Shown: piece by piece, positions 17,189-17,446 of the stretch
Layout: the number at the start of each line of letters is the position of its first letter
How positions within the stretch are numbered: position 1 is the first letter of the stretch
Assembly: GCA_018303005.1 (NCBI GenBank)
Contig: JAGVYY010000001.1
Location: 1-52,113 of the forward strand
Direction: 5' to 3'
From: Candidatus Woesearchaeota archaeon
Lineage (GTDB): Archaea; Nanobdellota; Nanobdellia; SCGC-AAA011-G17; GW2011-AR20
Length of the DNA: 52,113 nucleotides
Notes under the pieces: model-generated
Told to the model about the DNA's origin: nothing
Databases searched by the model: none
What the model saw: only the letters and a program-made list of their open reading frames with translations
Made by a program: the position numbers and the translations under genes

Positions 17189-17446
17189 GCGGAGATGCCG
17201 GAGATGCCATTGCAACCGGAATCTGGAAACTAGAATGTGCAAACATTTTAGACAGTCAACGGGCAGGTAAGCTATCAGATTAGCTTTGCTAAACTCAGAG
17301 CTTTGTTAAACTTAAGTACAGACTCTTTTCCAGTATTGCTACAAAATGAGAAAAGGGCGATGCTGAGAAATCCTGTGGCTTAGTGCCTACGCAGGAATCT
17401 TCGAGAGAAAACCTCAAGATTGCGAATTCAAATCCTGTTCTCCGCA
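17189..17446 (+). tRNA. tRNA-Leu(CAG), class II, interrupted by five putative BHB introns (mature length 85 nt)
   Basis: Acceptor GCGGAGA (17189-95) pairs with TCTCCGC (17439-45), with discriminator A.

Proposed introns:
- 17204-17221
- 17229-17257
- 17268-17292
- 17300-17369
- 17396-17426

Removing them gives GCGGAGA TG CCG GAGTCTGGAAAA CGG G CAGGA CTCAGAA TCCTG TGGCTTAGTGCCTAC GCAGG TTCAAAT CCTGT TCTCCGC A. The product has T8, A14, G15-C48, G18G19, U33, A37, a TTCAAAT T-loop and a long variable arm. Confidence 0.75.

Follow-up and report, generated by a model that had tools for sequence, protein, structure and literature searches.

A five-intron tRNA-Leu gene in a DPANN archaeon with two tandem candidate anticodon mini-exons

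The window analysed here is a stretch of 52,113 nucleotides (nt), contig JAGVYY010000001.1 of a Candidatus Woesearchaeota archaeon. Positions 17189–17446 of its plus strand are almost certainly a genuine tRNA-Leu gene of 258 nt, from which five introns of the bulge-helix-bulge (BHB) type must come out first. The architecture with five introns is real and shaped by selection: related genes share the same recurrent, conserved and co-varying intron classes. The anticodon region holds two alternative 7-nt mini-exons in tandem, and this one gene probably gives rise to both tRNA-Leu(UAA) and tRNA-Leu(CAG) by mutually exclusive splicing in cis, the choice between them being made by bistable BHB foldings. 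By its sequence features the locus is best explained as a functional tRNA-Leu gene with a promoter of its own, from a DPANN archaeon of the Woese-/Pacearchaeota-like kind.

Structure of the gene and its spliced product

The sequence of 17189–17446 reads exactly as described in the initial annotation, which proposed a tRNA-Leu(CAG) gene with five introns. The parts of the gene are listed below; intron positions such as 30/31 refer to tRNA numbering, and ^ marks a cut.

17152–17164 (+), TATA-like A/T-rich box ATATATTTAAAAA, its centre some 31 nt before the tRNA 5′ end; putative archaeal promoter
17189–17203 (+), exon 1, 15 nt: acceptor 5′ strand, nt 8-9, D-stem 5′ strand, A14 and G15
17204–17221 (+), intron 1, 18 nt, position 15/16; BHB helix CCGG/CCGG, bulges AG^A and AA^T
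17222–17228 (+), exon 2, 7 nt, TCTGGAA: D-loop with G18 and G19
17229–17257 (+), intron 2, 29 nt, D-loop at about 20a/21; relaxed BHB of 3 base pairs (bp), CTG/CAG, plus a flush 9-bp hairpin with a GCAA loop
17258–17267 (+), exon 3, 10 nt, AACGGGCAGG: D-stem 3′ strand, G26 and anticodon-stem nt 27-30
17268–17292 (+), intron 3a, 25 nt, position 30/31; strict BHB GGCA/TGCT, flush 6-bp hairpin AAGCTA/TAGCTT, bulges GG^T and AA^A
17293–17299 (+), mini-exon A, 7 nt, ACTCAGA: nt 31-37, anticodon CAG; alternative
17300–17309 (+), spacer, 10 nt, GCTTTGTTAA: 3′ half of a second BHB (AGCTT:AAGCT, TGTT:GGCA, then an AA bulge)
17310–17316 (+), mini-exon B, 7 nt, ACTTAAG: nt 31-37, anticodon UAA, that of the gene family; alternative
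17317–17369 (+), intron 4b, 53 nt, position 37/38; ends in TGAG-AA, the shared 3′ BHB half
17370–17395 (+), exon 5, 26 nt: A38, anticodon-stem 3′ strand, long variable arm and T-stem 5′ strand
17396–17426 (+), intron 5, 31 nt, position 53/54; BHB CGCA/TGCG, flush hairpin, bulges GG^A and AA^T
17427–17446 (+), exon 6, 20 nt: T-loop, T-stem 3′ strand, acceptor 3′ strand and discriminator A73; CCA not encoded

Deletion of the five segments leaves 85 nt, which ARAGORN calls as tRNA-Leu(CAG) with every stem intact, so the class II tRNA first proposed is borne out. The spliced product carries the class II identity set of tRNA-Leu: a 7-bp acceptor stem, G18 and G19, U33, a long variable arm with a 3-bp stem, and A73. 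The product with mini-exon B is also called tRNA-Leu, and in both cases intron removal restores the canonical cloverleaf. The spliced product of the window gene is 83/85 identical to those of the related loci L124, L074 and L072, and the differences in the acceptor stem are compensatory. The G+C content is 58% in the exons, 37% in the introns and 33% in the whole window. The TATA-like box has its counterpart in relatives, which carry TTTATAAA-type boxes at the same distance upstream.

All junctions follow one BHB register: a 4-nt exon strand and two exon bulge bases precede the first cut, and a 4-nt intron strand and two bases precede the second. The central helices are CCGG/CCGG for intron 1 (4/4 pairs), CTGG/ACAG for intron 2 (3/4), GGCA/TGCT for intron 3 (4/4, one G-U), CTCA/TGAG for intron 4 (4/4) and CGCA/TGCG for intron 5 (4/4). 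With the alternatives at 30/31 and 37/38 counted separately (a for the CAG path, b for the UAA path), introns 1, 3a, 3b, 4a, 4b and 5 have 4/4 helices and intron 2 has 3/4. The BHB motifs of introns 1, 3 and 5 are reproduced in local minimum-energy folds. The 37/38 intron is the least canonical of the five; its 5′ side is relaxed and lacks a flush inner helix. Introns 3, 4 and 5 had all been described as textbook examples, which for intron 4 does not hold on this 5′ side. The shortest exons are 7 nt long. For the constant exons the predicted splice junctions are GCCGGAG^UCUGGAA^AACGGG and CGCAGG^UUCAAAUCC.

On the intact window ARAGORN finds zero tRNAs, and Rfam gives no match at 17189–17446 even at E ≤ 10, its sole match being the neighbouring tRNA at 17909–18006. 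Such silence of both programs, in a span that is 67% non-tRNA sequence, could be taken as the mark of a decaying tRNA pseudogene riddled with insertions, or of an assembly chimera. We consider this very improbable: the exons are all intact, the stems pair, the conserved bases are present, a promoter-like box is present where one would be expected, each of the insertions has a BHB frame common to dozens of relatives, and the locus is identical in at least 13 assemblies. For this comparison contigs were found by exact-sequence lookup of two flanking proteins, and 16 of them, from different samples and mostly from the Rifle aquifer series (ENA, JGI), were compared. A 358-nt stretch spanning the locus is 100% identical end to end in 13 independently assembled contigs; three further contigs begin inside it and match at 100% over the part covered. 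The locus is not an assembly artefact. All sixteen contigs being identical, they carry zero polymorphism information. The short assemblies L053, L054 and L057 start inside the tRNA gene (around 17210 and 17249), and assemblers apparently tend to break here.

Intron classes in related genes

Related genes were collected in two ways. A scan of one-genome-per-species contigs with exon 6 gave about 35 tRNA-Leu genes from metagenome-assembled genomes of Woesearchaeota, Pacearchaeota and Nanoarchaeota; they have the same exon framework, with introns at 30/31, 37/38, 53/54 and in the D-loop. Metagenome contigs scanned for exon 5 gave at least 119 loci, and the family counts given here and below cover the 106 distinct genes among the matches listed. 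These were spliced-aligned to the mature template, which gave the intron positions.

Introns per gene: none in 16 genes, one in 24, two in 34, three in 23, four in 6 and five in 3
Position 15/16: 13 introns; central helix 4/4 in all
D-loop, about 20a/21: 12 introns; mean 2.75 of 4 pairs, 3-bp CTG/CAG helix
Position 30/31: 38 introns; all 4/4, with compensatory GGCA/TGCC (21), AGCA/TGCT (8) and CGCA/TGCG (2)
Position 37/38: 76 introns; mean 3.46 pairs
Position 53/54: 7 introns; all 4/4, hairpins with compensatory changes

All five window introns fall in these recurring classes, and their positions and boundaries thereby hold as first proposed. Four or more introns are found in 9/106 genes. Five introns occur in the window gene, L176 and L181, so the window gene is not singular in this respect. 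At 53/54 an intron is also present in L043 of the genome collection, and intron 4b is homologous to the 37/38 introns of L176, L100, L103 and L138.

The initial annotation suggested looking for compensatory changes in the four-base helices of relatives, and they are found at 30/31 (listed above), at 15/16 and in the inner helices. The 15/16 variants are CCAG/CTGG and TCAG/CTGG in L140, L176, L179, L183 and L171, exon CCAG being matched by intron CTGG in the first four of these. Intron 1 had been regarded as relaxed; with its 4/4 helix it belongs to one of the best supported classes. The inner helices, which lie flush with the central helix, were compared with a control in which the 3′ halves were permuted among genes in 500 shuffles. 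The paired fraction is 0.89 against 0.43 for the permuted halves at 30/31, 0.84 against 0.53 in the D-loop (10 introns analysed) and 0.65 against 0.43 at 37/38. In each of these three classes 0/500 shuffles reached the observed pairing.

Intron 2 is relaxed, as was noted initially. A second register, 17227–17255, had been thought equally plausible for it, and once intron 1 is out this register has a perfect GTCT/AGAC helix. The homologues L072 and L150 lack that helix, and relatives without D-loop introns read GAGTCTGGAAAACGGG at the region of the window's exon 2; the register is settled as 17229–17257 because of this reading. One long D-loop intron in place of introns 1 and 2 was also considered and is rejected because G18 and G19 would be deleted.

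Some features of the wider family lie outside the window gene. A T-loop class at 59/60 with a TTCA/TGAA helix is present in 18/106 genes and absent from the window gene; its carriers include L068, L078, L091, L097-L099, L138, L139, L179, L181 and L185, and in L087, L102 and L170 the 59/60 intron is 100 nt or longer. A gene with all six classes would hold six introns. The intron-less member L129 scores 55.9 bits with the Rfam tRNA model and is also recognised by ARAGORN. In several DPANN species (genome contigs L010, L013, L015, L022, L024 and L037) the 37/38 intron of tRNA-Leu(UAG) is conserved in sequence, with the pattern GGTGT...GAGCTTT...GCT.TGA...GAAGACA. Such conservation is unusual among tRNA introns and hints that this intron may have a function of its own. 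In L013 and L087 part of the 5′ exon is present a second time (GCGGAGATGC... and GCGGGCGTGCCGGA...), 60–70 nt upstream of the true gene start.

Two tandem anticodon mini-exons

The identity of the gene as tRNA-Leu stands, and CAG as its sole anticodon does not. By its sequence the window gene is a member of a large tRNA-Leu(UAA) family, nearly all of whose members have the anticodon loop ACTTAAG on the same stem, CAGGA/TCCTG. In the window gene this ACTTAAG is at 17310–17316, within the 70-nt intron 4, and is preceded by a BHB 3′ half of its own, TGTT-AA, whose pairing TGTT:GGCA includes two G-U pairs. The two loops are parts of tandem 17-nt units, 17283–17299 (GCTTTGCTAA-ACTCAGA) and 17300–17316 (GCTTTGTTAA-ACTTAAG). 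Of the four differences between the units, three fall on tRNA nt 34, 36 and 37, and at the fourth pairing is retained through a G-U pair. The shared 3′ half TGAG-AA can pair with CTCA of the CAG exon or, through a G-U pair, with CTTA of the UAA exon.

A blind scan for a second mini-exon looked for ACTNNNR behind four bases that all pair with the exon strand of the same gene, followed by two further bases. It found a second candidate in 8/106 genes, always ACTCAGA followed by ACTTAAG, and none in the remaining 98. The census among the matches listed is thus 98 UAA-only genes, 8 dual genes (the window gene, L099, L179, L110, L117, L153, L133 and L142) and 0 CAG-only genes. Wherever a 3′ half stands before a mini-exon it pairs 4/4 with the exon strand of its own gene, and the halves co-vary with that strand: GGCA:TGCC/TGCT/TGTT, AGCA:TGCT twice, and GACA:TGTC. 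In L133 and L142 ACTCAGA follows directly after G30. The dual genes differ in acceptor stems, D-loops and other introns, and the adjacent intron sequence is mostly unalignable between distant lineages; both mini-exons are nonetheless 7/7 identical in all eight. Judged by these sequences, neither mini-exon has decayed, and the predicted two-anticodon arrangement is conserved in several DPANN lineages. In the shared 3′ half upstream of ATCCTG, the base opposite nt 34 is G in 7/8 dual and 23/70 single genes (Fisher p = 0.004, uncorrected for relatedness); a G here is able to pair with C34 and U34 alike. The Woesearchaeote L037 has a stand-alone tRNA-Leu(CAG) gene with two introns whose loop, carried by the same anticodon stem, is likewise ACUCAGA with its unusual A37, and the stand-alone CAG gene of L159 also has A37. 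The alternative anticodon pieces, each with a matching BHB half, are thus present and conserved, and from this we infer that both are used. The corresponding codons TTA and CTG are each in frequent use in the window, in keeping with two products.

Production of tRNA-Leu(CAG) alone, through introns of 18, 29, 25, 70 and 31 nt and with ACTTAAG as a decaying relic of a UAA ancestor, would fit the relative strength of the helices in the window gene. GGCA/TGCT with its 6-bp flush hairpin is stronger than the skip site GGCA/TGTT with its two G-U pairs, the four Watson-Crick pairs of CTCA/TGAG are stronger than CTTA/TGAG, and ARAGORN directly calls L142 as Leu(CAG) with one intron. Such a relic is improbable given that no family gene among the matches listed is CAG-only and that ACTTAAG with its BHB half is intact in all eight dual genes. 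The helices of the UAA path are perfect Watson-Crick in L142, L117 and L133, and the skip conformer described below is at least as stable as its competitor. The commonest Leu codon of the window, TTA (32.6 per 1000, with CTG at 18.0 per 1000), needs a tRNA-Leu(UAA), which this gene family supplies.

Predicted folding and proposed mechanism

Two competing conformers are predicted for 17258–17322. The include conformer (GGCA/UGCU and the 6-bp hairpin) has a predicted energy of -9.6 kcal/mol, and that of the skip conformer (GGCA/UGUU, AAGCU/AGCUU and an internal hairpin), which is the minimum-energy fold, is -10.6 kcal/mol. They are nearly isoenergetic, and the splice choice would therefore be close to bistable. 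In the arm left after skipping, the minimum-energy fold already holds the anticodon stem, CUUA/UGAG and the 3′ bulge. Because the skip conformer is the minimum and the BHB of the CAG path lies about 7 kcal/mol above its own minimum-energy fold, the predicted energies suggest that UAA predominates over CAG among the products. This direction agrees with codon use in the window, TTA being more frequent than CTG.

In the mechanism that we propose, a single transcript would start from the TATA-like box at 17152–17164. The archaeal splicing endonuclease would cut the primary transcript at the BHB motifs, and RtcB with archease would rejoin the pieces. Both of these trans-acting proteins are encoded less than 6 kb from the split tRNA gene:

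20924–21346 (−), archease, the RtcB activator; Pfam PF01951, E = 6.6e-41
23112–24305 (−), RtcB tRNA-splicing ligase, 5.7 kb downstream; Pfam PF01139, E = 1.5e-128

The RtcB match begins at profile position 52, and the N-terminus may be short or mis-started. Three constant introns (15/16, D-loop and 53/54) would always be removed. The 5′ splice site after G30 (GGCA-GG^) would compete for the two tandem 3′ halves, and the two 5′ sites would be competed for by the shared 3′ site before A38. Pairing with TGCT-AA^ would excise intron 3a by itself and retain ACUCAGA; the CUCA/UGAG BHB would then remove 17300–17369, a 37/38 intron of 70 nt, to give tRNA-Leu(CAG). Pairing with UGUU-AA^ would skip ACUCAGA and join G30 to ACUUAAG, and CUUA/UGAG with its one G-U pair would remove 17317–17369 to give tRNA-Leu(UAA). 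An intermediate with both mini-exons would still be convertible to the UAA form; UAA would therefore be the default sink and CAG a kinetically trapped product. Archaeal leucyl-tRNA synthetase recognises the acceptor stem, A73 and the long variable arm and does not use the anticodon. Both products would keep these three elements, and therefore both would be charged with leucine and no miscoding would result.

The predicted energies would also suit a gene that makes tRNA-Leu(UAA) alone, since the skip conformer is the local minimum-energy fold and the UAA BHB sits in the minimum-energy fold after skipping. The introns would then be of 18, 29, 42, 53 and 31 nt, and ACTCAGA with its BHB half would be a structural helper or a leftover of a duplication. 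The 98 UAA-only genes and the frequency of TTA fit this picture, as does L176, the closest five-intron relative among the matches listed, which has the same architecture without ACTCAGA. We nevertheless find it rather unlikely. A leftover would hardly stay 7/7 identical in eight dual genes whose neighbouring intron sequence is mostly unalignable between distant lineages, or match the loop of a genuine stand-alone tRNA-Leu(CAG) down to the unusual A37. ACTCAGA is moreover preceded by the strict BHB of intron 3a, the CUCA/UGAG BHB, should it form, would be cleaved on its geometry alone, and G opposite nt 34 is enriched in the dual genes.

The production of both tRNAs from one gene remains the reading that we favour, and several points weigh against it. 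Both anticodon junctions are predictions from sequence, as are transcription, cleavage, ligation and the product ratio. Separate genes for tRNA-Leu(UAA) or tRNA-Leu(CAG) may exist outside the window. The 37/38 BHB conformer of the CAG path lies about 7 kcal/mol above the minimum-energy fold, and its 5′ bulge has no flush inner helix. The two G-U pairs at the skip site of the window gene could be early decay. The eight dual genes are not eight independent lineages (L099/L179 and L117/L153 are close pairs), and the p value of 0.004 is to be read with this relatedness in mind. The splicing endonuclease EndA was not found among the approximately 50 window open reading frames (ORFs) scanned.

Relation to known systems

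The intron count of the window gene exceeds the published maximum, as the initial annotation had stated: the tRNAscan-SE 2.0 paper (PMC8450103) and a review (PMC4390854) both give three introns per archaeal tRNA gene. Among open-licence papers and bioRxiv preprints we found no archaeal tRNA gene with more than three introns and no alternative anticodon exons in cis. Kaneta et al. reported that tRNA gene disruption is increased in DPANN lineages, that incomplete predicted tRNA sets in DPANN point to 'unidentified disrupted tRNA genes', and called for a search for them (PMC5829648). The present tRNA-Leu family is a case of such genes. For the EndA of these genomes the same paper suggests an alpha4 enzyme that has the L3 loop.

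The window introns belong to the archaeal BHB class, and the gene represents a more extreme form of what is known from the multi-intron tRNA genes of Thermoproteales (Pyrobaculum, Thermofilum and Caldivirga). There too, protein-spliced BHB or relaxed-BHB introns are found in the D-loop, at 30/31, 37/38 and 53/54 and in the T-loop, some introns must leave before a neighbouring motif forms, and standard tRNA finders miss the genes. The Thermoproteales genes differ in having at most three introns (PMC8450103, PMC4390854), whereas five are removed per product in the window gene, whose exons are as short as 7 nt. They belong to hyperthermophilic crenarchaea, and the present host is a mesophilic groundwater DPANN archaeon. 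Nuclear tRNA genes of Cyanidioschyzon merolae have up to three ectopic BHB-type introns in the D-arm, at 37/38 and in the T-loop, and their ordered removal was demonstrated by reverse transcription PCR (PMC3728597); this is a eukaryotic nucleus, with at most three introns and no alternative exons.

The tri-split tRNA-Gly of Caldivirga maquilingensis and the split tRNA-Glu of Nanoarchaeum equitans resemble the proposed arrangement in that shared constant parts and alternative anticodon parts are joined through BHB motifs into synonymous isoacceptors. Their parts come from separate genes, as separate transcripts that leader sequences bring together in trans, whereas in the window gene both loops lie in tandem and competing cis BHB pairings would act by exon skipping, with no separate transcripts required. 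All parts are contiguous in 258 nt behind one promoter-like box, and the gene is not placed in the split or tri-split family because they are all in cis. A likeness in logic only exists with mutually exclusive exons of eukaryotic spliceosomal genes, where one of several tandem duplicated exons is used and competing RNA pairings select it. The machinery is a spliceosome there and an endonuclease with RtcB here, the substrate is different, and there is no homology.

Flanking region and other candidates

The neighbouring gene at 17909–18006 (+) is a tRNA-Thr(GGU) with an anticodon-loop intron of about 25–27 nt (Rfam, 53.6 bits). A second anticodon exon was considered for it and rejected; the repeated TTGGT encodes the same anticodon. 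The order tRNA-Leu(UAA) followed closely by tRNA-Thr(GGU) is also found in L088, L091, L118 and L140, where the Thr genes have an extra non-canonical intron near 26/27, and a Thr gene near the Leu gene is present in L129, L079 and L176. The ARAGORN calls of 'tRNA-Leu(cag)' beside UAA genes in L088, L091, L118, L130 and L140 are not Leu genes; those in L088, L091, L118 and L140 are tRNA-Thr(GGU) with the extra intron. Between the two tRNA genes of the window lies an ORF of 129 amino acids (aa) at 17469–17858 (+). In the loci L058-L067, across assemblies of the same population, it is called as 129, 126, 92+40 or 79 aa, which suggests frameshift or start-site variation, in contrast to the invariant tRNA locus.

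Upstream of the tRNA-Leu gene, 16769–17188 (420 nt, no called gene) showed no hidden tRNA and no Rfam match; only a possible 43-aa hydrophobic ORF with ATG at 16946 is present. No C box of a C/D-box small RNA was seen by eye in the 70-nt intron 4. A T-loop-like motif at 50042 was rejected as a hidden tRNA, as it sits within a vWA-domain ORF. The ORF at 3259–4122 (+), of 287 aa, has bacterial sigma-70 regions 1.2, 2 and 4, on a contig that in other respects is clearly archaeal (L10e, GatD/GatE, diphthine synthase, DtdA and deoxyhypusine synthase).

Implications

With the window gene the known maximum of introns in an archaeal tRNA gene rises from three to five, and the multi-intron state is a family-wide property of DPANN tRNA-Leu genes, which have 0 to 5 introns. 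That ARAGORN and the Rfam tRNA model miss such genes is a concrete cause for the incomplete tRNA sets of DPANN genomes. If both products are made, the gene would be a cis counterpart of the tri-split tRNAs and a case of alternative splicing by the tRNA endonuclease and ligase system. It would be alternative splicing catalysed by protein enzymes in a prokaryote and altering decoding capacity. Reduced genomes could then encode two decoders per gene, in a ratio set by RNA folding, which may be a new form of gene economy. Such a gene would also bear on the modular origin of tRNA and on the rise of exon-skipping logic without a spliceosome.

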